Positions 26,439 through 59,873 are shown, numbered from the stretch's first letter. The stretch is 62,041 nt of DNA from a virus (IMGVR_UViG_3300032270_000816:1-62041), one strand, 5' to 3'. Made by a program: numbers and translations. The notes: a model not told the origin generated them from the sequence alone.

Positions 26439-26466
26439 CAACCTGAGCAAGTTGCAAAAAGGCTCA
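26439..26466 (+). ncRNA. CUGAGCA pseudoknot element, copy A
   Basis: CAAC-CTGAGCAA-GTTG-CAAAAAG-GCTCA, just downstream of the hsp20 stop. Confidence 0.65.
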
Positions 26467-26508
26467 TTCTTTGATATACTTGTAATACAAAACTTTAGGA
26501 GGTTTTAA

Positions 26509-27294
26509 GTGGCGGTTAAGGGTTCACTAGAAGCAATCATTGAGGTTGCTAAAGCAGAAATTGGGACTATTGAAGGTCCAAAAGACAACGAAACAAAGTA
26601 TGGTAAATGGACAGGTGCAAACTTCCTTCCATGGTGCCAGTCATTTGTTTCTTGGTGTGCATACACAGCAGGAGTAAAAGATTTTCCAAAGACAGCAGCG
26701 ACAGTCGTAGCGTCTGATTGGTTTAAAAAGAAAGCTCGTTGGGCGGATGCTCGTAATGATGATCCAACTCCAGGAGACTGGATTTATTTTGATTTCCCAG
26801 ATGATGGCGTAAATCGTATTTCACATGTTGGTATTTGTATTAAGAATAACGGAAATGGAACTATTCAAGTTATTGAAGGAAATACTTCAGGAACTGCAAA
26901 AGGAGATCAAAGAAATGGCGGTATGTGCGTAGAAAAAACTCGTGCATACGTAAAGAATAATAAGCCTAAGCTAATGAATGCCATTGTAGGTTGGGGTCGT
27001 CCAGTTTATGCTGGCGAAGAAGATCTTCCATTGCTTTCCAAAGTCGGTTCTTCTGACTCAGCAGTTAAACAAACAGCACCAGCAGCACCTGTCGCTGCAA
27101 AAGTTTTTAATCCACTTAAGGTTGGCTCAAAGGGCACTGGAGTTAAGAATGTTCAAAAACTTCTTAAGTTAAAGGCAGATGGCTCATTCGGTCCAGGTAC
27201 CGAAAAGGCTGTTAAAGACTTTCAGACAAAAAATAAGTTGCCAGCAACTGGTATTGTTGATCAGGCTACACTTAAAGCACTTAAGAGTAACTAA
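26509..27294 (+). CDS. Endolysin: CHAP amidase + peptidoglycan-binding domain
   Basis: PWCQSFVSW, SHVGI and IEGNT. C-terminal LKVGSKG..V..VQ...DGSFGPGTEKAVKDFQ...GIVD. Confidence 0.9.
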   Translation: MAVKGSLEAIIEVAKAEIGTIEGPKDNETKYGKWTGANFLPWCQSFVSWCAYTAGVKDFPKTAATVVASDWFKKKARWADARNDDPTPGDWIYFDFPDDGVNRISHVGICIKNNGNGTIQVIEGNTSGTAKGDQRNGGMCVEKTRAYVKNNKPKLMNAIVGWGRPVYAGEEDLPLLSKVGSSDSAVKQTAPAAPVAAKVFNPLKVGSKGTGVKNVQKLLKLKADGSFGPGTEKAVKDFQTKNKLPATGIVDQATLKALKSN

Positions 27295-27494
27295 TGGAGT
27301 CAACCAAAAGAACATATATTAAAACATTTAGCTGGGAAACTTTTCATTTTCTAGTGCTTGCTGTAATAATTTATTTGTTTACTGGTGATTGGGAATACTC
27401 AGGACTTGGAGCAATTTTCTATATTGGAATTGAATCCCTTGGATATTTTGTTCATGAAAGAGCATGGGCAAGGTTTGGACATAAGGTAAAGTAA
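27294..27494 (+). CDS. DUF2061-like small membrane protein
   Basis: ES.KR..IKT.SW...YFVHERAW. Confidence 0.7.
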   Translation: MESTKRTYIKTFSWETFHFLVLAVIIYLFTGDWEYSGLGAIFYIGIESLGYFVHERAWARFGHKVK

Positions 27495-27670
27495 TGCCTG
27501 TATATGATTATAAATGCACAATGTGCTCTTCTACTGTTGAATACAAAAGAGATTTTGGAGATAGTACAGAGCCATTATGCTGTAATGAAACAATGCAACG
27601 GCAATGGCAATCGCCAGGTGTGCTTTTTAACGGTACGGGATTTTATTCCACAGATAATAGAAAGCGGTAG
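27494..27670 (+). CDS. FmdB-family zinc-ribbon protein, 58 aa (not in ORF track)
   Basis: MPVYDYKCTMC...CC...M.R...FNGTGFYSTD. Confidence 0.8.
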   Translation: MPVYDYKCTMCSSTVEYKRDFGDSTEPLCCNETMQRQWQSPGVLFNGTGFYSTDNRKR

Positions 27671-27676
27671 TACAAT

Positions 27677-27907
27677 ATGAATACAATGATTGAGCAAGAA
27701 GAGCAAGTATGGCTTATGGATGCAACAGATCGTTGCGATAGATGTGCTGCTCAAGCATATGTAAAGGTAATAGGACATTCTGGAGAACTTCTTTTTTGTT
27801 CTCATCACTATAATAAGGTAGTTGATGATGCAGTTGGGTATGACAAAATTATGAAATTTATGGTTGAAATTATTGATGAAAGAGAGAGACTTGCAGATGG
27901 GAAGTAG
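27677..27907 (+). CDS. Small actinobacterial-type zinc-binding protein
   Basis: DRCDRCAAQAYV...ELLFCSHH...IDERERL, resembling conserved small actinobacterial proteins. Confidence 0.7.
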   Translation: MNTMIEQEEQVWLMDATDRCDRCAAQAYVKVIGHSGELLFCSHHYNKVVDDAVGYDKIMKFMVEIIDERERLADGK

Positions 27908-28046
27908 TAAGCATCCATTTAATGCTACACAGATTAAAGATGGAAGAATTGTAAAGCTAAGAAAAGATGGTCGTATTAAAGCAGATCTGGGACCTTATTT
28001 TGTTAATCACAATAAGCCAATTACTATAAAAAAGGAATCAAATTAA
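27897..28046 (+). CDS. Small basic hypothetical protein
   Basis: MGSSKHPFNATQIKDGRIVKLRKDG..., coupled to both neighbours. Confidence 0.5.
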   Translation: MGSSKHPFNATQIKDGRIVKLRKDGRIKADLGPYFVNHNKPITIKKESN

Positions 28047-28684
28047 TGAAAAAATTTTTACTATTTATAACATTGGCATTAGTATCAGGAATAGTTCCAG
28101 CACAAGCAGCAGACACATCTTTTACAACAGTATCAAAAGCGATTGAATCACTTAAGGTTGCTGATGAATCTCGTACAGGTTACGTACGAACAAAGTTTAA
28201 GCACTGGACAGGAGCAGGAAATGGTTGTGACTCTCGCAAGGCAGTCATTATTTCTGAGGCAGTTAAGAAACCAGTAGTTGAAAAAGGATGCGTAATTAAG
28301 GGTGGAGAATGGCTAAGTATCTATGACAATGTTATAGTTACAGAAGCAGGTAAACTTGATGTAGACCATTTTGTTCCATTGGCAGAAGCTTGGGATTCTG
28401 GAGCATCAGCATGGGATCCTGCAAAGCGAGAGATGTATGCAAATGATCAAACAGACCCACGTCATTTAATTGCAGTTACTGGAGCATCAAATAGATCTAA
28501 GAGTGATCGTGATCCAGCAGAATGGATGCCAACAAATAAAGCGTATACATGTTCATACATTGCAAACTGGGTATCCGTTAAAGTCAGATGGGCCCTAACA
28601 GTTGATACCAAAGAAAAGGAAGCACTTATTGCAAACAACAAAAGCTGCAAAGCAACCAAATTAACAGTTAGTTTAGTTAAGTGA
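28046..28684 (+). CDS. Secreted HNH-type nuclease (DUF1524-like)
   Basis: Signal peptide, GY.R..F.HW, LDVDHFVPLAEAWDSGA and NRSKSDRDPAEWMP. Confidence 0.8.
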   Translation: MKKFLLFITLALVSGIVPAQAADTSFTTVSKAIESLKVADESRTGYVRTKFKHWTGAGNGCDSRKAVIISEAVKKPVVEKGCVIKGGEWLSIYDNVIVTEAGKLDVDHFVPLAEAWDSGASAWDPAKREMYANDQTDPRHLIAVTGASNRSKSDRDPAEWMPTNKAYTCSYIANWVSVKVRWALTVDTKEKEALIANNKSCKATKLTVSLVK

Positions 28685-29251: not shown

Positions 29252-29285
29252 TCTGCTATAATCATAGTATAGATTCAGGAGAACT

Positions 29286-29822: not shown

Positions 29823-29843
29823 TATTAGTTAAAGGGGTAAACT

Positions 29844-32665: not shown

Positions 32666-33373
32666 ATGACATACATACATGAAGATCAGGTTAAGCCAAA
32701 ATCTAAGACAGCATTAATTTTATGCACATACATTAGATTAACAAACATGCCAAAACTGTTACAAAAGTTGCATGCACAAACCAATAAAGATTTTGATCTT
32801 TATATTTCAAATAATTCCTACAATAGTGACAACAAACTAATTGGTTATTTTAGAAAATATGGTATTGATCTTAACATAAATGTATTTATTAAAAACTATG
32901 AAAACAAATATAAACAATTTTCAAGATTTTATATGGCAAGAGATCTTGCAAAAGAAGGCTATGAAAAGATAATATTTATTGATGATGATGAGGTTTTGCC
33001 TTCAAGCTTTATGCAAGACTGCTATGACCAATACAATGAAAATGAAATAAAATCTTTTTATGCTCACTCTTTTAAAGAAGATTACTGGGCAAAGGTTAGG
33101 CTAAAGCCAGGAGAGTTTGGTAATTATGCTGGTACTGGTGGCCTTATGTGTTCTGCCAAAATATTTTTAGATGAAAGAATATTTGAATGTCCAGAAGAAT
33201 ACCACATAATTGATGATCTTTGGTTTTCTTATTTTATATTAAAGTTTACTAATTATAAAATAACTTTATTAGATACTGATATTCAGTTTATAAAAGATGA
33301 TAAAGCAACATTTGTTAATCTAATTGATATAAAAAGAAAATTTTCAACTGCATATATTATTAATAACATCTAG
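32666..33373 (+). CDS. GT-A (GT2-like) glycosyltransferase
   Basis: LILCTY.R, IFIDDD (DxD) and IDDLW. Confidence 0.75.
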   Translation: MTYIHEDQVKPKSKTALILCTYIRLTNMPKLLQKLHAQTNKDFDLYISNNSYNSDNKLIGYFRKYGIDLNINVFIKNYENKYKQFSRFYMARDLAKEGYEKIIFIDDDEVLPSSFMQDCYDQYNENEIKSFYAHSFKEDYWAKVRLKPGEFGNYAGTGGLMCSAKIFLDERIFECPEEYHIIDDLWFSYFILKFTNYKITLLDTDIQFIKDDKATFVNLIDIKRKFSTAYIINNI

Positions 33374-34390
33374 GTATTGTTGCCTTAACAAATTAATATC
33401 AAAATTGTTTAATGCTATTTCTATTGCCTTGTTCTTTGATTTTTGCTTATCTTTTAGTTTTACGTATTCATCTATTCGTGTTGCAAGAATTTTTGGATCA
33501 GCAGCATAAACATCAAGGGTCATTCTTGTTAAAAGTTTATCAATTTTGTTAGACTCAACAACCCATTCTGATGGAAGAACCGCATTATTTGGTGATATGT
33601 CAGTCATAAAAACTGGCAGACCGCTCATCAAAGACTCATTCATTGGTAAACAAAGACCAGCGTATCTTCTTGGAAGAACCATTGCGTCAAACCCACTATA
33701 AAGATTAGCGTTATTTTCTGTATTAGATGTATCAATAACTAAACGTGGATCACGACAGTCGGTTTCAACTGGTGTCTGACTTTTTATAACTAACTCATAA
33801 TCTTCTTTTGAATACTTAAGCATTTCAATAACAGTGCTAGTGCCATTTCTATCTTTAGCAGCAAATTTGCCTGCAATGTGAAGTATTCTGTTATGTGTTT
33901 TAGATATATTGGTTTCCCTTTGTGCAGCAAACGAATCTGGATCAATCGGTGGTGGAAGATATGCAATCTTTGTTATGTCTCCTAAAACTTCTTTGACGTG
34001 ATCAATCTTCCATAGGCTTGGTGATAAAAGTAAGTCAGGGGTTCTTTGATTTGGGTTAATAATTAAATCAAGAAATTCATAGTTATATTGAAGAATTGTT
34101 TTTACTTTTCTTTTTTGTGCAAGACTTAAAAACATTTCACTATAAAAAGACTCACAAGTTAAAACAACATCAACGCCTTCAAGAAACTGTACTATTTCTT
34201 CTCTTCTTGCAAACCCATCTCTTGTTGTTATGCATTCATATTCGCTGTACCACTCAGGATGCTGTTGATTTTGATTAAATGGCCTAGAGTCAATTAAAAG
34301 AATTTTTGTTGGCTTAAGCATGTTTACAAGACTTCTTGTTTGGTTGCCTAATCCTGTATTATCAGACCTTGCAATGATGCCTAATCTCAT
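33344..34390 (-). CDS. GT-B (GT4-like) glycosyltransferase (start ATG 34390)
   Basis: DNTGLG and D.MVLP...GLCLPMNESL.SGLPV..TD. Confidence 0.8.
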   Translation of the reverse strand: MRLGIIARSDNTGLGNQTRSLVNMLKPTKILLIDSRPFNQNQQHPEWYSEYECITTRDGFARREEIVQFLEGVDVVLTCESFYSEMFLSLAQKRKVKTILQYNYEFLDLIINPNQRTPDLLLSPSLWKIDHVKEVLGDITKIAYLPPPIDPDSFAAQRETNISKTHNRILHIAGKFAAKDRNGTSTVIEMLKYSKEDYELVIKSQTPVETDCRDPRLVIDTSNTENNANLYSGFDAMVLPRRYAGLCLPMNESLMSGLPVFMTDISPNNAVLPSEWVVESNKIDKLLTRMTLDVYAADPKILATRIDEYVKLKDKQKSKNKAIEIALNNFDINLLRQQYLDVINNICS

Positions 34391-35118
34391 TCTGTATAGC
34401 CCCAAGCATTATCATCTACTGTAAATTTTTGTGTTCCCCGACGACCATCTAAATGATATGAACGTTTAATACTTCCTTCTGGATGGTATATCCAAAGCTT
34501 GTGTTGATCCCATCCATCATCTTGAACTTTTCCATGAAACCTATCTTCAATAAAAGTCTTTTCTTCAGAAAATGGCAGCACAGTATCACGATAATATTTG
34601 ACGGTACTTAAATGAGGACGCTGACTCCACTGTGTAGTTCTCATAAAACCATCCTCAAGTCCAAACATTAAATAGCCATGTTCTTCTGGAATTACTGACT
34701 CAAAGTGAAAACGAATAGTATTAGCTTTATTATACTCAAGCATATCTAAACATTTTTGCCAATCAATTTCACAGTCTGGAGTTATTGGAGCATCGCCTTC
34801 AACATAAAGCATTGCTGCAGTATCAATAAGATCAATTGTTCTTTTCATCATTGTGGTTTGGTGACAATGCTCATCAAAAATTATGGGTAAAATATTTTTC
34901 CACTCATGCATACACTTCCAAAGAACCTTACTCTTATACTCATCATAGTCTGCTTTACGAGCCAATCGCTCTTCACGCAAACCATCCATCTGTAAAATAA
35001 TTTCATTGTCGGGAAAATGTGATCTAATTGCAGAAATAGTTTCATCAATAATATCTGTGTCTGGGTGGCTTGGCAATACAGATGTAGCAACAACTATTGT
35101 TATGTCATTCTTGTTCAT
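34387..35118 (-). CDS. Putative GT-A glycosyltransferase
   Basis: ITIVVAT, IIL..DG, LYVEGD and YHLDGR, within the glycan operon. Confidence 0.6.
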   Translation of the reverse strand: MNKNDITIVVATSVLPSHPDTDIIDETISAIRSHFPDNEIILQMDGLREERLARKADYDEYKSKVLWKCMHEWKNILPIIFDEHCHQTTMMKRTIDLIDTAAMLYVEGDAPITPDCEIDWQKCLDMLEYNKANTIRFHFESVIPEEHGYLMFGLEDGFMRTTQWSQRPHLSTVKYYRDTVLPFSEEKTFIEDRFHGKVQDDGWDQHKLWIYHPEGSIKRSYHLDGRRGTQKFTVDDNAWGYTE

Positions 35119-35959
35119 AAATATCCCTCATTATTTTTAAAGAAAAATCTCTTTTATACTTTAACCACCAGCATATCACCTGATGCATATTGTTGGGATA
35201 GTTTTTAATAAGTTCTGGCAGAAGTTCTTTTAGTTTATTCCAATCGTTAACCTTTGCAATTGGTATTTCTGCAGGGTAAACATAATTAAAATAATCAATC
35301 ATTTCACCCTTTGAGTCAATAAGATCACCAATAGGTAAAGCAAGCATTTCTATTGCCTCAAAGAATCTAAAGGTATCTATAACTTGGGCACCAGCAGGTG
35401 CTGGAACAACTCTAGCCTTTGATAGAGTGCGGTAGTAGTCTTTGGGCTGTTCTCCCTGGGCAAAGCCTTCTGTGGGCTTATAAAGGGCATTTGGCAGGGT
35501 TGGCATGATTTCTGCTAACTGTTGTCTACGCTGATGGGTTATTTGTCCACCAAAATAAATATCATATTCTTTAACAGGATAATCAGGCAAGTTAGACTTC
35601 AAGTGCTGCGGCGTACCAATAAAAAATCTATTGTATTGTTCATGTTTTTGATGTGGGTATTGAACCCAAATAGAAATATTAGAGTGACTAATTTTTTCTA
35701 CATTAAATTGAGCGCTTTCATCGCCAGTTATAAACAAGACAACTCTATCAAGGTTTTTTAATTGGTTTGATATTTCTTTTTCTTTACCAGCATTTCCATG
35801 TCCAGGAATAACAACAAAGCCACGATCTGCTTTTGGTATTTCTTTTACAACTACCTGATCAACATTATTTCTTTCAAATGTTTCTTTAAGCAATCCGTAA
35901 TCCCATTTGCCATCTGCAGCATCAAGGGGATCAATAGAATAAATATATGCAGTAATCAA
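35105..35959 (-). CDS. Putative glycosyltransferase (exostosin/GT-B-like)
   Basis: YDIYFGG, YYRTLS.AR..P.P.G...DTFRFFEA. Confidence 0.65.
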   Translation of the reverse strand: MITAYIYSIDPLDAADGKWDYGLLKETFERNNVDQVVVKEIPKADRGFVVIPGHGNAGKEKEISNQLKNLDRVVLFITGDESAQFNVEKISHSNISIWVQYPHQKHEQYNRFFIGTPQHLKSNLPDYPVKEYDIYFGGQITHQRRQQLAEIMPTLPNALYKPTEGFAQGEQPKDYYRTLSKARVVPAPAGAQVIDTFRFFEAIEMLALPIGDLIDSKGEMIDYFNYVYPAEIPIAKVNDWNKLKELLPELIKNYPNNMHQVICWWLKYKRDFSLKIMRDIYEQE

Positions 35960-36576
35960 TTAAGCACTCGCCAAAGTTTTTCTTCTGTAATTAATTTTCC
36001 AATAAGATCTTCATCTATGTATGACCGATTAGATGCTAACGTAATTTGTGAGTTGTAGGTATGAATTGCATCAACTTTATGTTTAGTAAAATTAACTGAA
36101 ACATTTTCTAAATTATGAACAGATTTAAATTTATCTAGTCTTTGTTTATATAGTTCTGGATATGCTAACCTGTATGGAAGTTCTGCATAAATAAAATATG
36201 TTTTGTTATAATCTTTTATTAAAGTAAATAATGTTTCAGATAATAATACATGGTCTGGATGATGTATTCCTAATGGAATGTAAATATTTTCATAATTATT
36301 AATTATATTTTTTATCCAATTATTTAGATCATCTTCATTTTGTTTTCCATAAACATCATCTAAAAGATCGCTATTGATAACTTTTGCACCAATCATTGAG
36401 CAAGCAACATCATGTTCTTTTCTTAGTAGTGTGTGCTTTTTATATCCAACATCATCTGTTGGAATACCAGAAAACGCTGAAGCAATTGTAAAATTATTAT
36501 CATTATTATCAATAATGTAATCACCTAAAGAAAAAATTGCGTCATCCGCATGAGGACAAAAGATAATACTACTCAT
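35956..36576 (-). CDS. PIG-L/LmbE-family N-deacetylase (start ATG 36576)
   Basis: PHADD, R.E, HPDH, YAELPY and K..A...Y.SQ. Confidence 0.85.
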   Translation of the reverse strand: MSSIIFCPHADDAIFSLGDYIIDNNDNNFTIASAFSGIPTDDVGYKKHTLLRKEHDVACSMIGAKVINSDLLDDVYGKQNEDDLNNWIKNIINNYENIYIPLGIHHPDHVLLSETLFTLIKDYNKTYFIYAELPYRLAYPELYKQRLDKFKSVHNLENVSVNFTKHKVDAIHTYNSQITLASNRSYIDEDLIGKLITEEKLWRVLN

Positions 36577-37276
36577 AAAACAAATGAACCTCATGCTGAT
36601 AATCAATTAATGTTTCGGTATACCCAATATCTTTAATAAAATTTCTTAGGTCATACAAGTATTCATTCCATTGTTGAATCATAAACTCAGGATGACCAGA
36701 TAGCCAAATTTTAGGTTTGTATTCTCTTAGCACTTTTTCAGCACCACCAAGAACTCTCCACTCGCTACCCTCTACATCCAAAGAAATTGCGGTAGGTGGC
36801 TTAATCCCATGATCATAAACACAAGAATCTATAGTAATTTGTCCGTAACTCTCACCTTCAAGATATAGTTCTTTAAATCCATGCGCTGCTTCAATTACGT
36901 TATTAACTTCTGGAGGCCATTCATTATAATAAATTCTTGAAAGATTATTAATTTTATCAGATGCAAATCCAGGAATGCATGCCAACGGAAGTTCTAAATT
37001 ATTTGCAGTCCAGGTTGCAGGAAAGTGTGACCATACTTTAGGGTTTGGTTCAAATAAAACTACCTCTGCACCCCACATTTGACATAGCGCTGGAAACTCT
37101 CCTTCTTCTGCACCAACGTAATAAACAACATCTCCTTTATTAATATGTTCATGCATTGACTTTAGTCTAGGTTTTTCCCAACCATGTGGCTGGTACCAGT
37201 CTGGTCTGTCTGCACGATGCTTTGGCAGTATCATTTCAAACTCTCCGTTTAAAACTGCTTTAACCATTTCTGTCAT
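36569..37276 (-). CDS. FkbM-family methyltransferase (start ATG 37276)
   Basis: VGAEEG, FEPNP and LDVEGSEWRVLGGA. Confidence 0.85.
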   Translation of the reverse strand: MTEMVKAVLNGEFEMILPKHRADRPDWYQPHGWEKPRLKSMHEHINKGDVVYYVGAEEGEFPALCQMWGAEVVLFEPNPKVWSHFPATWTANNLELPLACIPGFASDKINNLSRIYYNEWPPEVNNVIEAAHGFKELYLEGESYGQITIDSCVYDHGIKPPTAISLDVEGSEWRVLGGAEKVLREYKPKIWLSGHPEFMIQQWNEYLYDLRNFIKDIGYTETLIDYQHEVHLFYE

Positions 37277-38154
37277 TTGTTTATCCATTCTTCTAGCGAT
37301 ATTTTTGGTTTCCATCCTGTCAAAGCATTAAACTTTGCGTATGATGCAAGGGTCTCTTTTGCTTCCCCAACTCTCGCTGGTATAAAAATAAGATCACCAG
37401 ATATCATATTTGCAACATCAAGAATAGAATAATTTTTTCCAAAACCAATATTGTAAACTTCTCCAAAACCATCATTAACCTGTGCTGCAATAATATTTGC
37501 TTCAACAACATCGGATACATGCGTAAAATCTCTTCTTTGATTACCATCACCAACAATGGTTAGTGGTTGTCCATCTTTAAACTGTTTATCAAAAAGACCT
37601 ATAACTGGGGCAAACTCACCCTTTAATGGTTGCCTTTCTCCATAAACATTAAAGTATCTAAAAATAATAGTTTCAACTCCAAATAATTTTGTATACATGG
37701 AGCAAAGTTTTTCTCCATTTACTTTTGAAACTGAGTATGGATTTAAACAATCTTCTGGTTGAGCTTCATGGTTTGGAACAGGGTTTTTACCATAGGCAGA
37801 AGATGTTGATGAGTATATAACTCTTTTAACTCCTGCCTCTCTTGAACATTCTAATACTGTTGCAGTTCCAACAGAGTTTATGCTGATTGATTCAACAGGG
37901 TTTTGTATTGCTGGCTGAATTCTTGATTCTGCAGCAACATGAAAAACACAATCAATTCCTTCGTATAGTTTTCTTGTATTTTTATAATCACGTATATCTA
38001 GTTTATAGTTTTGTGCTTTTTTGTTCCAGTAAAATTGATCATGAACCTTAGAGTATTCGTTGTCTATTACTGTTACGCTATGACCAAGCTCAATTAGTTT
38101 ATCAACTAAATTTGAGCCGATGAAGCCTGCTCCACCCGTAACTAAATAGTTCAT
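37273..38154 (-). CDS. NAD-dependent nucleotide-sugar epimerase/dehydratase (start ATG 38154)
   Basis: VTGGAGFIGS, SSTSSAYG, YSVSK, RYFNVYG and GDGNQRRDF. Confidence 0.93.
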   Translation of the reverse strand: MNYLVTGGAGFIGSNLVDKLIELGHSVTVIDNEYSKVHDQFYWNKKAQNYKLDIRDYKNTRKLYEGIDCVFHVAAESRIQPAIQNPVESISINSVGTATVLECSREAGVKRVIYSSTSSAYGKNPVPNHEAQPEDCLNPYSVSKVNGEKLCSMYTKLFGVETIIFRYFNVYGERQPLKGEFAPVIGLFDKQFKDGQPLTIVGDGNQRRDFTHVSDVVEANIIAAQVNDGFGEVYNIGFGKNYSILDVANMISGDLIFIPARVGEAKETLASYAKFNALTGWKPKISLEEWINK

Positions 38155-39110
38155 TTTATTCCAAGCTCTGACAATATTGTTGACCATCTATTAACATATG
38201 TATGTTCATTTTTTGTTCTTTCATGACCATTTAACCTGATACGTTCTCTGTCAATGCTATCTTCAAGATACTTATCTATCTTAGTTTTTAGATCTTCAAG
38301 ATTACCATGCTCATAAAAAACAATTTCATTTCCATCTTCAAAGTAATCTTCAAGCCCCTTAATGCGAGGGTAGATAGTAAAACCACCACGACCAGTGCTT
38401 TCAAATAATCTATCGCTAGTATAGTAAGGATAGTTAAAGTTAATGTTAAGGCTATCTCCTACGGCTATTTTACTTTGTGCGTATATCTTATTGAGGGCAT
38501 CACCACGGATTGTACCAGTGTCACCATCTCCACCAACATGAAGAAATTTTTTTCCATAAGTGCTTCTTAAAAAGTCTATTAGCTCTGGGCGATACCTATG
38601 TTCATGATGATAACCTTTGCTACCAACAAAAATAACATCATATTTAAAATCATATGGATTGTATTGTTTATGAATGTAACACTCTTTATCGTATACTCCA
38701 GCAGGTAGAAAGTGTCCTTTCACTTCTGTATTTTTGTTAAACCAGTCAGTCATTAGTTTATCTGTAGCAAAGAAGTGTCCTATAGTTTTATAGAATGTAT
38801 CTTCTTCTAAATCTTTTTGTCGTTCAATACCAAACCACAAATCAAGATGGTAGGTCATTGTGGGGATGTTTGCCTCTTTTAGTTTGATCAGAACGTCTTC
38901 CATGCCAATATTTCCTGAAGTATGCCAGCCGTGTGTGTGAACCCAGATAAATAGATCGCTTTTTAAGGACTCCACAAGGATGCGCTGGCTTCTTGCCTCA
39001 CGTTCCTGCATTTTAATGACAGTATGACCAAGGGACTCAAGAGATTTTACGTGATGATTCTCACTACTATAATCCACACCAAAGTTACCTAAAAAAACAA
39101 TTCTAGCCAA
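38151..39110 (-). CDS. CgeB-like glycosyltransferase (Glyco_trans_1_2)
   Basis: YDVIFVG, Y.SDRLFE..G.GGF, RERI..NG......HTY..R. TTG start with AAGGGG SD. Confidence 0.8.
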   Translation of the reverse strand: MARIVFLGNFGVDYSSENHHVKSLESLGHTVIKMQEREARSQRILVESLKSDLFIWVHTHGWHTSGNIGMEDVLIKLKEANIPTMTYHLDLWFGIERQKDLEEDTFYKTIGHFFATDKLMTDWFNKNTEVKGHFLPAGVYDKECYIHKQYNPYDFKYDVIFVGSKGYHHEHRYRPELIDFLRSTYGKKFLHVGGDGDTGTIRGDALNKIYAQSKIAVGDSLNINFNYPYYTSDRLFESTGRGGFTIYPRIKGLEDYFEDGNEIVFYEHGNLEDLKTKIDKYLEDSIDRERIRLNGHERTKNEHTYVNRWSTILSELGIK

Positions 39111-39130
39111 GATTTACCCCTTTAAAAAAT

Positions 39131-39625
39131 TTATGCTTGAATAGCAGGTTCTGCTTCAGCAGTTTCTTCTACTTGAGACTCCATTATTTCTTCTTTAACT
39201 ACTGCAGATAGTTGCCAATGCCACTTAGAGTGCATGTCAATTCTTTCTGCAAGGAAATTAGCAACACCTTGTTCACGTGCTGCGGAGGCAACATCAAATG
39301 CATCTTTTAGCTTGGCAAGAACTGCATCATTTGATCTTAAAAGGTCTAGTGCCATATCTTCAAACTCTGATGTAACATCTGTTTCTGATACAGTTGAAAG
39401 AGATGTTAAACGGGATAGTTTAAAAGGAGCATATGTGTCTAATCTACGAAGGTTTTCAGCAAATTCATCTGTTGCCTCTTCATAGTCGTTATAAATCATC
39501 TCAAAAAATGTATGTGCTTGTGGAAAATCATCACCCTCAACGTTCCAGTGATAGCCATGGGCTTTAAATTTAAGTGCCACTGTGTCTGCAAGAAGTTCTT
39601 TTAGGGCTGCAATTAGTTGTTCCAT
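39131..39625 (-). CDS. dps: Dps ferritin-like DNA-protection protein
   Basis: HGYHWNVEG..F...H..FE...D..AE and H.K..W.L. Leaderless start. Confidence 0.92.
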   Translation of the reverse strand: MEQLIAALKELLADTVALKFKAHGYHWNVEGDDFPQAHTFFEMIYNDYEEATDEFAENLRRLDTYAPFKLSRLTSLSTVSETDVTSEFEDMALDLLRSNDAVLAKLKDAFDVASAAREQGVANFLAERIDMHSKWHWQLSAVVKEEIMESQVEETAEAEPAIQA

Positions 39626-39663
39626 CTAATCATTGTACCACAATCTATGATAAAATAGATGTT

Positions 39664-40143
39664 ATGGCTGATACATATACCCCGAACGCTGGCATGAAGT
39701 CTGCTGCTAGACGAGCATTAAAATGGAAAGAAGATGGCAAGGCAACAGGCGCAGGAACTCCTGTAGGTTGGGGTAGAGCAACAGATATTGTTAATGGCTC
39801 TGCAATGTCTCTTGATACTGTTAAGCGCATGTACTCATTTTTTTCAAGGCATGAAGTAGATAAAAAAGGAAAAGACTTTAACAACACCTCTAACCCATCT
39901 AATGGTCGTATCATGTGGGATGCTTGGGGTGGAGATGCTGGCTTCTCATGGTCAAGAAAAATAGTTGCAGCACAAAAAGATTTTGATCCATTTGAGGGAA
40001 TCTTTAGTTTTGCTAAGCAAGGACCGTGCTGGGATGGTTATGTTCAAAGAGGAATGAAGCCAGGCAAGAATGGTAAGCCAGTTCCTAATTGTGTTCCAGC
40101 GTCCAAGATGGATAAACTATTTAAAGACTGCTGCCCTGAATAA
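39664..40143 (+). CDS. Hypothetical phage protein (head-maturation-associated-like domain; start ATG 39664)
   Basis: GTPVGWGRA...DTVKRMYSFFSRH...WDAWGGDAG plus CWDGY...GMK...VPNCVP. Confidence 0.6.
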   Translation: MADTYTPNAGMKSAARRALKWKEDGKATGAGTPVGWGRATDIVNGSAMSLDTVKRMYSFFSRHEVDKKGKDFNNTSNPSNGRIMWDAWGGDAGFSWSRKIVAAQKDFDPFEGIFSFAKQGPCWDGYVQRGMKPGKNGKPVPNCVPASKMDKLFKDCCPE

Positions 40144-41554
40144 TCTTAAAGTTATATTCTTTTTCCCATTCAGCAATGTCTTGCTTATCATTTAGTAATG
40201 GCTGACCTTTTATATTTAAGCTTGTATTTAGTAATACGGGTACGCCAGTCTTCAGATAAAACTTATTCAGTACCATCCAAAGACCTCTATGCTGTTCTTT
40301 GTTAACTGTTTGAACTCTTGAAGTACCATCTTCATGAACAACAGAAGGTATCTTTTCTGGCTGCAAACATTTGACTGTATATTGCATATAAGGAGAAGCA
40401 AAGTCCATATCAAACCACTTAGATGCATGCTCTTCCATTACTACTGGAGCAAATGGTCTAAACATTTCTCTTTGTTTAATTAAATTAACCTTATCTTTAA
40501 TGCTTGGATCTCTTGGATCAGCAAGGATACTTCTATTTCCTAATGCTCTTGGACCATACTCTGCTCTTCCGCTTGCAACAGCAACTATTTTATCTTTTAA
40601 TATGCCGTCAACAATTTCTTGAACTGGATATTTACCACCTAAATCATGTCCTAAGTATGGTGTTTTCCATTCAATATGTTTTCCGTACAAGGCTGCAGCA
40701 GCACCTAGCGAACTACCAGCATCACCTGGATTAGGCATGATCCATACTGAATCATATAGTTTCCACAGGTTTGTATTGGCAGAAGAGTTTAGTGCACAAC
40801 CACCCATAAATATCAAATTTTTTTTACCAGTGATCAGCTTTGCCATTCTCATAAACTCCATTAGTCTGGTAGTGTAGACTGCTTGGACTGCTGCTGCTAT
40901 ATCAAACTTATCTTCTTCTGTGATCCATCCCCAGTCATTTATTCCTTTATGAAAGTTATATTTCTGAGTATGATAGTTAGAAAAATATGAATCTACTTTA
41001 TTATAATATTTTTTCCAATCACCGTAAGCAGCCATGCCCATCATAATATATTCTTCTTGGTTTGGCATAAGTCCTATTAATTGGGTAAATGCAGAATAGA
41101 ATAGTCCAAAACTAAAAGGATAGTTTTCTTTATGTTTTAACTTAATCTTATCCCCTTGGCCCACCCAAATTGTGGAGGTATTGTATTCGCCAATAGCATC
41201 AAGAACTACAATAACAGCGTCATTAAAACTACTTGTATAGTAGCCTGCACAAGCATGAGAATAGTGGTGTCCAAAGGACTTCCATGGGGTAGATCCTATC
41301 CTAACTCTTGGCTTCCAGTCCCCAGAGCCACCCTTTAAAAGTAGCCTAGAGGCCTTTAGAAGGGGCTTCTCGTAGTATCCTATACGATCTGGGTAGCCAT
41401 ATTGTAAAGCATCATTAATTAAACTATCATTGATATACCAGTCATTTTTTTGCTTACTATATCTTTCAGAATGTCCTGCAAATAATATTTCCCCATCTTT
41501 AATTAAAGATACAGATGCATCATGTGAGGTTTCGTTAATTCCCAAAATTAACAC
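40121..41554 (-). CDS. Carbamoyltransferase (NodU/CmcH family)
   Basis: HDAS, ERYS..K, HHYSHA, EYIMMGMAAYG, GGCALN, GDAG, EYGPRALGNRS, FRPFAP and LNTSLN. Confidence 0.93.
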   Translation of the reverse strand: MLILGINETSHDASVSLIKDGEILFAGHSERYSKQKNDWYINDSLINDALQYGYPDRIGYYEKPLLKASRLLLKGGSGDWKPRVRIGSTPWKSFGHHYSHACAGYYTSSFNDAVIVVLDAIGEYNTSTIWVGQGDKIKLKHKENYPFSFGLFYSAFTQLIGLMPNQEEYIMMGMAAYGDWKKYYNKVDSYFSNYHTQKYNFHKGINDWGWITEEDKFDIAAAVQAVYTTRLMEFMRMAKLITGKKNLIFMGGCALNSSANTNLWKLYDSVWIMPNPGDAGSSLGAAAALYGKHIEWKTPYLGHDLGGKYPVQEIVDGILKDKIVAVASGRAEYGPRALGNRSILADPRDPSIKDKVNLIKQREMFRPFAPVVMEEHASKWFDMDFASPYMQYTVKCLQPEKIPSVVHEDGTSRVQTVNKEQHRGLWMVLNKFYLKTGVPVLLNTSLNIKGQPLLNDKQDIAEWEKEYNFKIIQGSSL

Positions 41555-41559
41555 TATAG

Positions 41560-42519
41560 TTAATTATCCTTTATTTCATTATATCTTTGCAAAAAATGTT
41601 CAGCAATATGTTGATTTAAGTGAATTCCCCAGTGTCCGTTTCCAATGCCAGGATTGTAATCAGCTGCACGATAGAATAAAAGATGATCTTTTAGTTCTTG
41701 ATGACATTCTGGAATAATGTACCCATTTTCTACCGACTCATGCTTAATATATTCTACTCCGTCTTGACTATCAAACATAAACTCTCTAAAATTAATATAC
41801 AAATAATCTTTTAATGCTTCTGGAACATTTGTTTTTACGTAATCATAAAAGAACTCATCATCCCACATATTCCATATCAGCTTTATGTTATTGGATTTAC
41901 AGTATTGTTGTAACATTTGAATAAAAGTAAAACTATAAAAAAATGCAACTTCTATTGGTAAAACTTCTTCAGGGCTGTGTGGAGATTTTGAAAATTTTTC
42001 TATTTGATTCTCAATAAAAATTTGCTGCATTTGTAATTCATCTTTAAATGCGTTTTCATATAAAAAAAGTTTGCTAACATTTTTTTTAGGAATGTATGGC
42101 ATTTCAAGTCTAGTTGATGGGAATGAAGCTACAATTATTTCAGGGTGACCAAACTCTTCAAAGTATTTAAATGCTTTATAAACTTGAGCTTGAGCGCTGT
42201 CACCAGGTTGAGCTAAGTTTGCGTAAGACTTTCCTGTGCCATCAGCAAAAATTTTAGCCCATGTAAATTTTTGCGGAATTCCTTGTCCAAATGTTTGTGA
42301 GCATCCAAGAACAAGTATTTCTTGATTCAAACCAAATTCATCTGATCTATAGCCGTGAGAGTTTATTTGATATAATATTTTCATTCTTATATCAGATTCT
42401 GGCCAGATGACAGATCTGCCAATGATGCGTGTCTTTTTTATTAAGCTATTCCTTAAGTCTCTATAAAATAAGTCTTTAAATAAAGTTGGTGATTGTACAT
42501 CATAGTCAAAAAATTTCAT
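41560..42519 (-). CDS. SGNH/GDSL-like hydrolase-fold protein
   Basis: INSHGYRS.EF, LGCSQTFG.G, NLAQPG.S and GHWG...N. Confidence 0.6.
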   Translation of the reverse strand: MKFFDYDVQSPTLFKDLFYRDLRNSLIKKTRIIGRSVIWPESDIRMKILYQINSHGYRSDEFGLNQEILVLGCSQTFGQGIPQKFTWAKIFADGTGKSYANLAQPGDSAQAQVYKAFKYFEEFGHPEIIVASFPSTRLEMPYIPKKNVSKLFLYENAFKDELQMQQIFIENQIEKFSKSPHSPEEVLPIEVAFFYSFTFIQMLQQYCKSNNIKLIWNMWDDEFFYDYVKTNVPEALKDYLYINFREFMFDSQDGVEYIKHESVENGYIIPECHQELKDHLLFYRAADYNPGIGNGHWGIHLNQHIAEHFLQRYNEIKDN

Positions 42520-42605: not shown

Positions 42606-42624
42606 AATTCTATTATACCTTAAG

Positions 42625-42696
42625 TGCCCCCGACAGGATTTGAACCTGTGGCCTTCACCTTAGAAGGGTGCTGCTCTTCCGCTGAGCTACGAAGGC
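42625..42696 (-). tRNA. tRNA-Arg(UCU)
   Basis: Cloverleaf, anticodon loop CTTCTAA and GGTTCAAATCC T-arm. No encoded CCA. Confidence 0.92.
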
Positions 42697-42699
42697 TTG

Positions 42700-42772
42700 C
42701 TGGTCTGGCAGGTCACGATCCTGCGACATTCGCATTAACAGTGCGACGCTCTACCAACTGAGCTACAGACCA
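42700..42772 (-). tRNA. tRNA-Asn(GUU)
   Basis: Cloverleaf, loop CTGTTAA, with atypical T-loop ATCGTGA. Confidence 0.88.
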
Positions 42773-42796
42773 ATGTTTGTTATTTAGTTATTTCAG

Positions 42797-42870
42797 TGCA
42801 GCAAGTAGGACTTGAACCTACGATTACCGAATTATGAGTTCGGGGCTTTAACCAACTAAGCTATTGCTGC
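42797..42870 (-). tRNA. tRNA with CAU anticodon (Ile2 or elongator Met)
   Basis: Cloverleaf with loop CTCATAA. G1-C72 is paired, so it is not an initiator. Confidence 0.88.
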
Positions 42871-42894
42871 ATTATAGATTGACTATAATTTTTG

Positions 42895-51921: not shown

Positions 51922-51992
51922 TTCAGGTTCGTCTAATGGTCGGACAATCGCTTCCGAAGCGAGAAACATAGGTCCGACTCCTATACCTGAAG
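51922..51992 (+). tRNA. Atypical tRNA with CCG anticodon (nominal Arg)
   Basis: TTCAGGT/ACCTGAA acceptor, loop TTCCGAA and T-arm ATAGG-TCCGACT-CCTAT. Own TGCTATACT promoter at 51903-11. Confidence 0.7.
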
Positions 51993-52005
51993 CCTAAATA
52001 AGAAA

Positions 52006-57065: not shown

Positions 57066-57185
57066 GTATTAATTATTGCAAATTTCAGGGAAAAAGTCAA
57101 GTCTCTCTTAATAAGGTTTTTATATTAATACAATTAGTTATATGTCCCAAATGTCCAAATTTACTCGGGGCCCCATTTACGCTTG

Positions 57186-57259
57186 CGATCTGTATGGGAC
57201 TTGAACCCACGACCTCTACCGTGACAGGGTAGCGCTCTAACCAACTGAGCTAACAGACC
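57186..57259 (-). tRNA. tRNA-Asp(GUC)
   Basis: Canonical cloverleaf, loop CTGTCAC and G73. Confidence 0.93.
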
Positions 57260-57262
57260 AGA

Positions 57263-57290
57263 GAGCAGTTTTATTTCATGCTCAGGAAAT
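57263..57290 (-). ncRNA. CUGAGCA pseudoknot element, copy C
   Basis: ATTTC-CTGAGCAT-GAAAT-AAAAC-TGCTC, between the DUF932 stop and tRNA-Asp. Confidence 0.65.
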
Positions 57291-57294
57291 TGTA

Positions 57295-58317
57295 TCATGC
57301 TAGTTGCATAACATTCTGTACAACTTTTAGCAAACGATTTTTCTCTGCGTTAATTGCAGGGTCAAATCCGCTTGCACTTGCAAGGATAGATTCGTTAGAA
57401 CCACCTCTTGCTGTGCGGTACCAATCAAGGCGTTCTGTAAGAGCGTTAAACGCACCCCACGCATTACCAGCAATCATGCCGTTAAATTCACCTGTGTAAA
57501 TATCATTTACCATGTCAATTTTATTTTCCCACTTCTTGATTGCACCCTTAGCGTCTTTTTCTGGCTTAGGATAAGCAGCGAGAATAATATCATTGAAAGA
57601 CTTAGCATTGACTTCTTTCTCAAACATAGCCTTAGCCATGATGTCAAATTCGTCCATGTAAGCATTAGCAAGACCAAGAGTCTCACGTGCAATCTGTACT
57701 TTACCATTAGCGGTCTGTGTATGGCGAATCTTGAAAGATTGCTTGATACCCTTGTTCTTCTTGCGACCTACGCCACCAAGAGCAAGGTTAAGAGTGTTAG
57801 CGCATACAACACGAACAGGTGTGATACTTGCTTGAATAGCGATTGAGCCATCGTGTGATGTGTTGATGAGCAAATAAGTCTTTACCTTATCTGCAACACC
57901 GCTAGGGTCTAGGACTGTTTCACGCTCTAGTGCTAATGCACCGAACACAACACGTCCACCCTTGATTGAGCCAGCGGTTTCCCAACGTCCACCACCGTCA
58001 AGAATATTGTCACCGAATGAGAATAAATCTTCATTCTGCATTACGTGATAACGCTCACCAACGACACCAAGAATGTCTGTCTGTGAATTATCTGTAGGGT
58101 TAGTACGCAACACGTACTGATACGCCTTATCTGTAGTTAAGTGTGATGGAATTGGCATATCTTCAAGACGAACATTCCAGCCGTTAAGGTTAGCAGCCTC
58201 TAACATTTCCGCTGTTGTTTTTTCTTCTGTAAAGACAGTACCCAATCCATGCCATGCAGGTTCACGGAAAGAAGCAAAAGATGTCTTACCGTTTTGTATT
58301 TCTAGGTCATGTGCCAT
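57295..58317 (-). CDS. DUF932-family phage protein
   Basis: MAH...REPAWHGLG, LGVVG.RY...QN, WETAGS..GG..VF, SHDGS, TPVRVVCANT, IRHT and WGAFNA.TE..D. Confidence 0.88.
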   Translation of the reverse strand: MAHDLEIQNGKTSFASFREPAWHGLGTVFTEEKTTAEMLEAANLNGWNVRLEDMPIPSHLTTDKAYQYVLRTNPTDNSQTDILGVVGERYHVMQNEDLFSFGDNILDGGGRWETAGSIKGGRVVFGALALERETVLDPSGVADKVKTYLLINTSHDGSIAIQASITPVRVVCANTLNLALGGVGRKKNKGIKQSFKIRHTQTANGKVQIARETLGLANAYMDEFDIMAKAMFEKEVNAKSFNDIILAAYPKPEKDAKGAIKKWENKIDMVNDIYTGEFNGMIAGNAWGAFNALTERLDWYRTARGGSNESILASASGFDPAINAEKNRLLKVVQNVMQLA

Positions 58318-58347
58318 GAGTTTTCTCCTTTTTGTTGTTGAAATTTA

Positions 58348-58431
58348 AGTATAGCAGGACGGGGTGACATATGCAAATCAGGATAGTTAGATGTGTACAA
58401 ATTGGACATTTTTCCTGTGATCTTAAACACC
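58348..58431 (-). promoter_or_regulatory. Early promoter module with TGTCAC box and CRP-like site
   Basis: TTGCAT-17-TATACT, with TGTGA-N6-ACACC at 58416-31. Confidence 0.65.
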
Positions 58432-58485
58432 CTTCTTAAACTTGACAAATGAAAGTTTTGCCCCCCGAGATTTTTGCAATAAAAA

Positions 58486-58610
58486 GTGAACAGTTTAAAT
58501 TCATGTTCAGGAACGGATGCCTCGCTATAGCACTGGCATTACCTCTAGTGGAGCAGTTTACGTGGCCGTGCTCAGGGCCCTTATCCAGTTTAAAGACATG
58601 TGACAGGTCT
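58486..58610 (-). ncRNA. Tandem array of three pseudoknot elements (G 58582-58610, F 58551-58579, E 58486-58513) plus a hairpin
   Basis: AGAC-CTGTCACAT-GTCT..AAACTGGATA; GGCC-CTGAGCAC-GGCC..AAACTGCTC; TTC-CTGAACAT-GAA..AAACTGTTC followed by a T run. Confidence 0.65.
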
Positions 58611-58624
58611 ATGTTCATAGCCCC

Positions 58625-59065
58625 CTATGAAATATTATCCTCCGCATTCAGTGTGCGTGTGTCAACGTTGTAGTCATCAATTGAATAATCAAATGAATCA
58701 ACACTGAATTCAAGAGTGTTAGCAACATCATCAGCGTCAACATCAAACGGTACTTCAATCTCAACTTCAAACTCTACAACTGCATTAACGGTAACTGTCT
58801 TAGTTAATTCAAAATCACAAATCTGTGCAAGGGCTTCTGCAATGTCATGAGACATTGAGTTGTCACCAAGAGATTCAAGAACATATTGTTTTACTGCGTC
58901 CTTGGTGCTTTGGTGTGAACGCTGTTCTGCATATAACTTTTGTGAGTTATCTGATGAACGGTCCTGCAATGAAAGAATCATCGCATCCTTCTTCTCAAGC
59001 GCTTCCTGCAATGCACTAATCTGTGCACTAAGAAACTCTGTTGTTGCTATCTGTACTGCGTCCAT
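58625..59065 (-). CDS. Hypothetical acidic early protein
   Basis: Coiled-coil N-terminus, acidic beta-rich C-terminus and its own promoter. Confidence 0.65.
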   Translation of the reverse strand: MDAVQIATTEFLSAQISALQEALEKKDAMILSLQDRSSDNSQKLYAEQRSHQSTKDAVKQYVLESLGDNSMSHDIAEALAQICDFELTKTVTVNAVVEFEVEIEVPFDVDADDVANTLEFSVDSFDYSIDDYNVDTRTLNAEDNIS

Positions 59066-59100
59066 ATGGGGCCTGCTTCCTGTTGTTTGTTATTAATATA

Positions 59101-59185
59101 AGTCTAGCAGCGGGCCCTGACAAGTGCAACACGTAAACCCAGGAATCTTAAATAATGAGACTTAATGCATGTGAGAAAAATCACA
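59101..59185 (-). promoter_or_regulatory. Early promoter module with TGTCAG box and perfect CRP-like site
   Basis: TTGCAC-17-TAGACT; TCTTA-N5-TGAGA at 59146-60; TGTGA-gaaaaa-TCACA at 59170-85. Confidence 0.7.
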
Positions 59186-59229
59186 CAGCTCGGGGCGCAT
59201 ATTTATGCAGTCACTTGAATAAATATTGG

Positions 59230-59356
59230 TGAGCAGTTTTGGCTCATGCTCAGGAGGTCTGCTTCTTTAGGTCTGCAGTAACCTTGCTCTATAGTATTTC
59301 TATGATCGCCCTAATCAGCCTGGCGAATTGGAGTGGGGCTTTTACACCCCACCCAA
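59230..59356 (-). ncRNA. Structured 3' RNA array: hairpins, a ToxI-like pseudoknot (59259-84) and CUGAGCA copy D (59230-56)
   Basis: GTGGGG/CCCCAC and TCGCC/GGCGA hairpins; AGGT-TACTGCAG-ACCT-AAAGAA-GCAG; CTC-CTGAGCAT-GAG-CCAAAAC-TGCTCA. Confidence 0.6.
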
Positions 59357-59362
59357 CCTCAT

Positions 59363-59785
59363 TTAGAGATAACGAGCAACCGCTTGATAAGTTGATGTAG
59401 AAACTACTTCTTCATCTGTCATCTTTAGGATACGAATTGCGTTTGACATTTCTTCCTTCTGATTACGATATTCGTGGTCGTGCATTGTTACGAAATCACG
59501 CTCAGGTTCAACAGGAAGTGAATCCTTTGATACTGTGAGGTCAAAGTCAATGTTCAATAGATTATTCCATGAACGATAAGAAGTGCGGAAGTTTTCTGCC
59601 TTAGAGATATTCTTGACAGCATAAGCAATAAGTTCCTTCTTATACTTATCATACGACTTTGTGTATTTTGCTTCGTTTGCTTCCTTCTCTGCATAGTCTT
59701 TTTCTAACTTTGCAAGTGCATCTTCTAGTGCCTTGATTACCTTTGGTGTTGCGATTTTAACTGAGATTGCTTTGCTTCTTGACAT
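59363..59785 (-). CDS. Hypothetical early protein
   Basis: AAGGAA SD, own promoter and NAIRILKMTDEEVVSTSTY motif. Confidence 0.7.
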   Translation of the reverse strand: MSRSKAISVKIATPKVIKALEDALAKLEKDYAEKEANEAKYTKSYDKYKKELIAYAVKNISKAENFRTSYRSWNNLLNIDFDLTVSKDSLPVEPERDFVTMHDHEYRNQKEEMSNAIRILKMTDEEVVSTSTYQAVARYL

Positions 59786-59845
59786 GGTGTTCCTTTTCTT
59801 TTGTGGGTTATATTTCTAGTATAGGGGGTGGTACTGACATTAAAG

Positions 59846-59873
59846 TGAGCCTTTTTGTATCTTGCTCAGGATA
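59846..59873 (-). ncRNA. CUGAGCA pseudoknot element, copy B
   Basis: TATC-CTGAGCAA-GATA-CAAAAAG-GCTCA, preceded by an AGTCGC/GCGACT hairpin. Confidence 0.65.

Follow-up and report, generated by a model that had tools for sequence, protein, structure and literature searches.

The 62,041-base linear virus record IMGVR_UViG_3300032270_000816 of IMG/VR (the window, i.e., the whole stretch of DNA that was analysed) has a G+C content of 37% and an estimated completeness of 57%, and its genes include those for a DnaB-like helicase, the Pol III alpha subunit, Hsp20, an endolysin, glycosyltransferases and six tRNAs. The window also carries seven copies (A to G) of a small element, 28 nucleotides (nt) in length, with the layout of an H-type pseudoknot, and six of the seven lie within a 2.7-kb stretch of small open reading frames (ORFs). 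An initial annotation, made from the sequence alone, had described these elements and their helices and had placed every copy on the sense strand behind a stop codon. The coordinates and pairings were confirmed when the sequence was checked (Table 1), and all seven copies do follow a stop codon on the sense strand.

The copies share a common plan. The 5′ strand of a first helix (P1; 3–5 base pairs (bp), variable in sequence and closed by a C-G pair) is followed by the loop CU, by the 5′ strand of a second helix (P2), GAGCA, and by one variable junction base. The 3′ half consists of the 3′ strand of P1, the linker nnAAAC and the 3′ strand of P2, UGCUC, usually with an A directly behind it (position +1).

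A covariance model (A1/R1) was built from the copies of other phages together with window copies C, D and E, with P1 as the sole modelled helix. At E ≤ 0.041 it found exactly these seven copies in the window, the next match having an E-value of 0.19, although E-values from this model are rough. A strict pattern matched the window four times where 0.03 matches were expected, a number reached by none of 100 shuffles, and a looser pattern gave six matches in the record and none in the reversed control.

Both helices are kept by compensatory change

Viral contigs were scanned with a pattern in which the loop and tail were fixed and P1 was left free. The motif proved to be widespread, with at least 146 matches at at least 120 loci; the context, flank and alignment counts given below for phage copies are among the matches listed at these loci. 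Genes were called by a longest-ORF heuristic, and the copies are not independent, many of them coming from related phages. Half of the 120 listed loci share a protein with the window phage and half do not. From these loci and the window, the covariance model recovers 191 copies, in three alignments.

P1 can form, with at least 3 bp, in 132 of the 146 listed matches, even though the pattern left it free, and its sequences are highly diverse; several of the other 14 simply have a longer loop. In the three alignments, 95.3–95.9% of the cells in paired columns are paired, compared with 77.6–80.9% in shuffled alignments (none of 500 was as high) and 23–46% when the partner strand was slid. P1 is 95–98% paired, and all four of its pairs vary on both sides, except for the closing C-G in alignment A2; that pair is flipped to G-C in three copies. 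P2, which lies outside the structure of the model, is 99.3–99.7% paired, with changes on both sides in four of five pairs in alignments A3 and A4 and in one of five in A2. The only unpaired P2 cells are an A opposite a G, in a recurrent subtype.

The second helix was also recovered by a scan that left it free and required only P1, the start of the CU loop and AAAC. All five P2 pairs were present in 130 of the 145 candidates. Among the 40 candidates with a nonconsensus loop or tail, 25 were fully paired through compensating changes (GGGUA/UACCC, GGCCA/UGGCC, GGACA/UGUCC, AGACA/UGUCU, AAAUA/UAUUU and GAGUA/UACUC), and the remaining 15 had zero to four P2 pairs and look like chance matches. P2 contains G-U pairs and no A-C pairs, and it is therefore the sense strand that folds. 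Compensating changes in both helices are also seen among orthologous copies in 80 close relatives, which are 90–98% identical in the neighbouring protein.

Sequence conservation is concentrated in CU, in GAGCA/UGCUC and in AAAC, and the sequence of P1 varies freely. The geometry is fixed: in 170 of 215 copies, P1b and the linker add up to 10 nt. There is no covariation between the loop U and the +1 A (69–80% are U-A, the rest unpaired), and a conserved unpaired base is the better description of the +1 A. In two copies (L057:6626-6673 and L066:3081-3143) a further hairpin is inserted where P2 meets P1, at the one-base junction, giving a three-helix element.

Assignment of the motif to the H-type pseudoknots, with both helices kept by compensatory change, is thus strongly supported, and the earlier view that the elements are functional compact folds holds in the wider alignments. 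A motif acting at the level of DNA, such as a promoter or protein site, was rejected, as both helices covary with sense-strand G-U pairs. A boxA-like reading of UGCUC was dropped, as the P2 variants lose that sequence and still pair. One further proposal fared less well. In copies A and B the last loop base had appeared to change together with an AAAAG-GCUC tail, in a manner suggestive of a tertiary contact. This coupling is not a rule and is at most a tendency: the 34 distinct copies of the AAAAG-GCUC subtype, A and B included, have as their last loop or junction base an A (19 copies), a U (13) or a G or C (two), and copies of the consensus type have U (117), A (74), C (23) or G (one) there.

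The motif is anchored to the unit upstream of it

In 122 of 130 listed cases the motif and the upstream gene share a strand, and in 115 of 129 the motif shares the strand of the downstream feature. The spacer between the upstream stop codon and P1 is 4–10 nt in 57 of 122 copies, with a peak at 5–6 nt, and is shorter than 4 nt in one copy only. The stop codon is TAA in 63 of 83 cases, compared with half in the background. The next start codon lies at widely varying distances (median 73 nt). The motif is thus anchored, and in every case tightly coupled, to the unit on its 5′ side, whether ORF or tRNA, and its 3′ neighbour varies. About five to six bases of mRNA are still covered by a ribosome that has a stop codon in its A site, and the knot is therefore as near to the ORF as it can be without being unwound.

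The upstream genes are diverse, with Hsp20 (17 of 105) and phrog_1221 (16 of 105) recurring. Downstream, 16 of 129 copies precede a tRNA, 15 of them at 3–14 nt and one at 33 nt. A strict scan of the 80 close relatives detects the motif in 73 of them in the slot that copy C fills in the window, between the DUF945/phrog_1221 gene and tRNA-Asp; in the other seven, inspection by eye finds a motif-like element with a variant tail or one mismatch. Tandem arrays occur in the window (copies E, F and G) and at locus L103.

Directly behind P2, A occupies position +1 in 100 of 139 copies, and hardly any copy has a G at +2 or +3 (two and three of 139, respectively). ACCA is the commonest tetramer (14 of 139), and in a wider, looser set NCCA is found in exact register behind P2 in 40 of 453 copies, compared with 4–15 at other offsets. 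For comparison, 13 of the 87 tRNAs at the same loci encode CCA, and 81 of these 87 have C at position 74, which is C in approximately 42% of cases at the matching place of the motif. Behind 31 of 139 copies there is a T-run (four or more T within 14 nt), compared with 6.8% of the background. Canonical terminators are not enriched near the motif (five of 144 copies within 100 nt, compared with 4.8% in the background), and an association with terminators was rejected.

Copies and neighbouring features in the window

The conserved core of copy A begins 24 nt past the Hsp20 stop codon, and the endolysin gene starts 43 nt after the copy. Copy C is placed 4 nt past the stop codon of the DUF945/phrog_1221 gene and 3 nt ahead of tRNA-Asp. 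Copy D lies behind a 140-aa ORF (59363-59785). Copy G, which begins 14 nt past the stop codon of a 146-aa ORF (58625-59065), is a degenerate member of the family, with a 9-nt loop and a P2 that requires a bulge and a G-U pair. Close relatives mostly have a single copy at the position of the E-F-G trio, and the slot of copy F is kept in them. A 60-aa ORF (58436-58618, minus strand) consists almost entirely of the trio and is in all likelihood no gene.

Behind both D and E there are sigma-70-like promoter matches. The match behind copy E is approximately 110 nt downstream of it and ahead of the DUF945 gene, which suggests that the trio may end a transcription unit. Contigs of four metatranscriptome runs cover the relatives' versions of the genes at 57100-60100; such contigs carry no information on ends, strand or level.

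Table 1. Pseudoknot copies in the window and the features next to them
Feature	Coordinates	Strand	Description
Copy A	26439..26466	+	P1 CAAC/GUUG, loop CU, P2 GAGC/GCUC; AAAAGGCUC subtype; 21.8 bits, E 5.7e-5
Copy B	59846..59873	-	P1 UAUC/GAUA; AAAAGGCUC subtype; behind 92-aa ORF 59923-60201; 23.8 bits
Copy C	57263..57290	-	P1 AUUUC/GAAAU; 45.7 bits
Copy D	59230..59256	-	P1 CUC/GAG, P2 GAGCA/UGCUC, followed by ACCA; 40.5 bits
Copy E (last of tandem trio)	58486..58513	-	P2 GAACA/UGUUC, a compensated change; followed by a U-rich run; 37.8 bits
Copy F	58551..58579	-	P1 GGCC/GGCC; linker 2 nt longer than usual
Copy G (first of tandem trio)	58582..58610	-	Divergent; 12.8 bits, E 0.041
Hsp20 gene	25992..26417	+	3′ flank holds copy A
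tRNA-Asp (GTC)	57185..57259	-	Adjoins copy C
DUF945/phrog_1221 gene	57295..58317	-	3′ flank holds copy C
Sigma-70-like promoter match	58348..58377	-	TTTGCA-18-TATACT, TG-extended; consensus match only

Among the other tRNA genes of the window, a cluster of four (42624-42965, minus strand; Arg-TCT, Asn, Met and Gly, with spacers of 2–23 nt) has no adjoining pseudoknot copy. A tRNA-Arg (CCG) at 51922-51994 on the plus strand, which scores 48.9 bits, below the other five, is surrounded by genes of the minus strand. A series of glycosyltransferase-like genes on the minus strand (33344-42519), together with a carbamoyltransferase gene (40121-41554), suggests a sugar-modification module.

Copies in cultured phages

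Eleven GenBank phage records were searched with the covariance model. Synechococcus phage S-CRM01 gave ten matches at E ≤ 0.1, of which eight also reach E ≤ 0.01, and Methylophilales phage Melnitz-3 gave one strong match. AG-345-E02 had one weak match (E 0.018), and there was no match at E ≤ 0.1 in Jay2Jay, AG-345-P14, S-TIM5, S-RIM8, P-RSM6, DSL-LC03, ZPAH1 or Astolliot.

Several S-CRM01 copies are placed inside tRNA arrays: one is 2 nt past tRNA-Tyr, one is 5 nt ahead of tRNA-Asp, one lies 1 nt past an unannotated tRNA and 5 nt ahead of tRNA-Met, and one lies 1 nt past tRNA-Met and 3 nt ahead of tRNA-Leu. Another begins 5 nt past a stop codon. A further copy (73025-73057, minus strand), in which P2 has only three good pairs, is found 25 nt upstream of the gp32 start codon. 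ARAGORN predicts a tRNA-Ser-like gene at approximately 149330-149413 of the S-CRM01 record (HQ615693.1) that is absent from the GenBank annotation, and a copy begins 1 nt after it. The Melnitz-3 copy begins 5 nt past a stop codon and ends 13 nt ahead of the next gene.

The closest cultured homologues of the DUF945/phrog_1221 protein (approximately 52% identity) come from Streptomyces phages and other actinobacteriophages, whose terminal repeat contains the gene. No copy of the motif is present in Streptomyces phage Jay2Jay.

Distribution and novelty

The same kind of pattern was run against 596 Gb of bacterial and archaeal genomes and returned 74 matches, 12 of them with a P1 of at least 4 bp; most of the cellular matches are coincidences inside G+C-rich coding sequence. 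With the cellular scan as negative control, the motif is seen to be essentially viral. Well-formed copies were seen on contigs binned to metagenome-assembled genomes (MAGs) of Methanobrevibacter and Saccharibacteria (L129, L135, L122, L142 and L161). These contigs may be prophages or mis-binned phage contigs; if genuine, the copies would extend the motif to viruses of archaea and of CPR bacteria.

No named family accounts for the motif, as the initial annotation had already indicated. Across the whole window, only tRNAs attain the gathering score of an Rfam 15 family. At E ≤ 10, no Rfam 15 row overlaps the elements in the region 57100-60000. Smaller stretches compared at permissive thresholds gave chance rows only: the sole row in 57255-57300 is an archaeal snoRNA model (7.8 bits, E 2, gathering score 45) that covers 13 bases at the 5′ edge of copy C, and in 58475-58620 there is no same-strand overlap, one opposite-strand row (58522-58555; 9.5 bits, E 6.8) touching the end of copy F.

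No description of the motif was found in searches of the published literature on phage, tRNA-like and RNase P-related pseudoknots, and a term search of the available text of the Minerva preprint and the S-CREM1 paper found no mention of it. Fremin et al. (2023) obtained 8495 candidate structured RNAs of 29–151 nt from IMG/VR (PMC10690425). That catalogue draws on the same data source and may list the motif without a name, although the main text, as far as it was available, does not contain it. The motif represents a real, abundant and sharply defined phage RNA family that is apparently undescribed.

Comparison with known pseudoknots

The nearest natural relative in kind is the gene 32 pseudoknot of the T-even phages, which is likewise a compact H-type fold in a phage intergenic region and which, in the T4 sequence, is followed by ACCA and a G-poor, A/U-rich unstructured stretch. 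The present motif does not belong with it: the leader of T4 gene 32 receives no score from the covariance model, the best match in that locus (11.2 bits) lies elsewhere, and the helix lengths differ. Furthermore, the T4 element is a single-copy operator for one gene, whereas the present motif is dispersed and anchored upstream. One S-CRM01 copy has the location of a gene 32 leader, and the seven window copies follow other genes. Control of gene 32 was rejected as a general role, as none of 80 related cyanophage gp32 loci carries the motif.

The pseudoknotted acceptor arm of plant-virus tRNA-like structures of the TYMV type, and synthetic RNase P substrates, have the same topology, with a 3′ strand that pairs with a hairpin loop, a single-stranded N(CCA) tail and a pyrimidine before a first pair that is G-C. 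Structures of the TYMV type are found at the 3′ end of a genome, mimic a whole tRNA and always carry CCA. The present motif, in contrast, is internal to the transcripts of DNA phages, has no anticodon or T-loop part and carries CCA in 9–10% of copies.

Luteovirus −1 frameshift knots are approximately 28 nt long, with a 2-nt first loop that starts with C, a one-base junction and an A-rich last loop. The motif resembles them in layout and in its 5–6-nt spacing, but it follows a stop codon and often adjoins a tRNA. The preQ1-I aptamer is also a small H-type pseudoknot, with an A-rich tail that runs along P1. It has a multi-base ligand loop and is found within 5′ untranslated regions (UTRs) belonging to queuosine genes, whereas the motif has one variable junction base, diverse neighbouring genes and no Rfam match.

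Theta ribozymes occupy the same slot 3′ of phage tRNAs and have a pseudoknotted fold (PMC10879173); the motif is far smaller and lacks the inner helices. The nested double pseudoknot of HDV-like ribozymes was not found, as just two helices fit into 28 nt and there is no Rfam ribozyme match. Finally, type III antitoxin RNAs (ToxI-like) consist of near-identical tandem repeats beside a gene for an endoribonuclease toxin; within the E-F-G trio, P1 and the spacing vary from copy to copy.

A candidate guard at 3′ ends

The observed fold, spread, strand and position rules can be accommodated by a tentative reading, in which the motif is a tRNA-end-like, cis-acting 3′ guard or punctuation element in the polycistronic transcripts of phages. 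In the proposed scheme, P1, with 4–5 bp, would stack on the 5-bp P2 to form a compact knot, with the 2-nt loop CU crossing P2 and the nnAAAC linker running along P1. The knot would stand directly 3′ of a functional unit, either an ORF, where the spacer would keep the ribosome at the stop codon off the fold, or a tRNA. Ends would be created nearby by host nucleases: by RNase P at a downstream tRNA, and by endonucleases in the G-poor stretch after the knot. Exonucleases acting 3′ to 5′ would then trim back to the knot and halt there, and the upstream unit would retain a short, structured, acceptor-like 3′ end in which the first pair is G-C, an unpaired A is usual and CCA is occasional. Such a nuclease block would be expected to stabilise the upstream unit.

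Ends would be made right behind many copies because RNase P must cut the adjoining tRNA. This, together with the coupling to the 5′ side and the tRNA-like 3′ flank, makes a 3′ guard the best reading. No canonical terminator accompanies the motif, and there is therefore none to do the protecting instead. The tandem copies, which end a unit ahead of a promoter-like site, are also in favour of a guard. The roles offered by the initial annotation (3′ cap, processing signal or released small RNA) are all compatible with the data, which do not decide among them; termination, which it had also named, has little support, given that terminators are not enriched.

Several points weigh against a guard function. 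The helices are short and AU-rich, the nested folds reach just −2.2 to −7.0 kcal/mol, and the second P1 pair is nearly always A-U or U-A; with helices this weak, stability has not been maximised, contrary to what would be expected of a pure roadblock. A plain hairpin would also block exonucleases, so the strong conservation of CU, GAGCA/UGCUC and AAAC points to a specific partner or an exact tertiary fold. The S-CRM01 copies between two tRNAs have no mRNA to protect, and the low frequency of CCA (9–10%, as above) is a poor fit to an acceptor-like end. The kinship of the copies and the heuristic gene calls likewise temper the counts on which the reading draws.

Alternative explanations

The main alternative, though somewhat unlikely, is that the motif mimics the acceptor arm of a tRNA and is itself cut, by RNase P between the loop U and the first G of P2 or by RNase Z after the +1 A, serving as a tRNA-free punctuation mark that splits polycistronic RNA. 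Kosek et al. (2025) reported that RNase P cuts a synthetic H-type pseudoknot in loop 1 once a 3′ GCCAC tail has been added, fastest with U at position −1, and cited the T2/T4 gene 32 pseudoknot, with its ACCA, as a candidate RNase P substrate, reported as such in vitro; they treat the action of RNase P on pseudoknots in vivo as an open question (PMC12710915). Features of the motif that fit the preference of the bacterial enzyme as given there (PMC12710915) are the conserved U ahead of a first pair that is G-C, the unpaired A, and two following bases that are rich in C/U and poor in G. NCCA is enriched in register, and in S-CRM01 the element is placed in tRNA arrays as a tRNA unit would be, 1 nt after one tRNA and 3–5 nt before the next. 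However, NCCA is present in just 40 of 453 copies, yet the synthetic substrate required it (PMC12710915), and the C that 81 of 87 tRNAs have at position 74 is found in only approximately 42% of motif copies. After cleavage in loop 1, the upstream mRNA would have a bare end approximately 12 nt past its stop codon, a site 3 nt from a tRNA that RNase P already cuts would be redundant, and the motif is anchored upstream, not downstream.

A broader version of this idea, which is also rather unlikely, is that the copies are scattered minimal imitations of the tRNA acceptor, through which host RNase P, RNase Z and the CCA-adding enzyme would cut, trim and cap phage RNAs, the 30–40-nt copies excised between tRNAs acting as an abundant decoy for a tRNA-directed host factor such as a defence nuclease.

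It is unlikely that the knot is itself the product, an abundant released small RNA of approximately 30–40 nt, freed by the cuts that process flanking tRNAs or by other nucleases, that binds and titrates a conserved host or phage factor, e.g., a tRNA-directed nuclease, the CCA-adding enzyme or a single-strand-binding protein. A conserved paired P2 and conserved loops on a freely varying P1 do resemble a binding surface on a scaffold, copies are numerous within single genomes (seven in the 62-kb window, and the ten S-CRM01 matches at E ≤ 0.1, eight at E ≤ 0.01), tandem arrays exist, and placement between tRNAs would release the element exactly. The S-CRM01 copy 25 nt upstream of gene 32 also occupies the site of a protein-binding pseudoknot in T4. 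Most copies, however, follow an ORF with no evident cut site on the 5′ side, and none of the 80 related gp32 loci carries the motif.

A very small self-cleaving ribozyme that frees tRNAs and mRNAs at its own edge, as proposed for theta ribozymes, is very improbable. The motif can lie flush behind tRNAs (1–2 nt), in the slot described for theta ribozymes (PMC10879173), its strand order is that of the two outer helices of the HDV fold, an unpaired C and A are conserved at the junction, and two copies have an extra junction hairpin. Against this, 28 nt hold no counterpart of the inner helices that build the HDV active site, no Rfam ribozyme family matches even at E ≤ 10, and there is no conserved unpaired G; a cut at the 5′ edge would leave an mRNA that ends 5–6 nt past its stop codon.

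A transcription terminator or pause signal, in which the knot takes the place of the terminator hairpin, is just as hard to credit. The motif does sit between small genes and the next promoter-like site, and T-runs are commoner behind it than in the background (31 of 139 copies compared with 6.8%). However, 78% of copies have no T-run, canonical terminators are not enriched nearby, and many copies are 3–30 nt ahead of a co-oriented tRNA or ribosome-binding site that needs to be transcribed.

A ligand-sensing riboswitch or a stimulator of frameshifting or read-through is the least credible of all: despite an architecture like that of preQ1-I and the luteovirus knots and a 5–6-nt spacing equal to that of frameshift sites, the single variable junction base leaves no ligand pocket of the preQ1 type and there is no fixed relation to start codons, and recoding was rejected because a slippery heptamer is present in just two of 60 copies, the other frames close after a median of 4–11.5 codons with no extended alternative frame, and tRNAs follow within 3 nt.

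Significance

If the motif is a guard or punctuation element as proposed, it would represent a common, very small phage RNA family that is missing from Rfam and that obeys precise rules, lying 5–6 nt behind stop codons and flush with tRNAs. Its mechanism is bounded by clear position rules. At 28 nt, the motif is potentially a compact, portable part for the control of mRNA ends in synthetic constructs. The two cultured phages with hosts, S-CRM01 and Melnitz-3, make it testable at the bench, and it would offer a natural test case for the action of the tRNA-processing machinery on pseudoknots in vivo. Were the tRNA-mimic reading correct instead, the motif would be a pseudoknot that serves RNase P as a natural substrate in vivo, and phages would have a new class of RNA mimic. 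A 3′ guard, for its part, would reveal how message ends are defined and protected in phages that have few canonical terminators.

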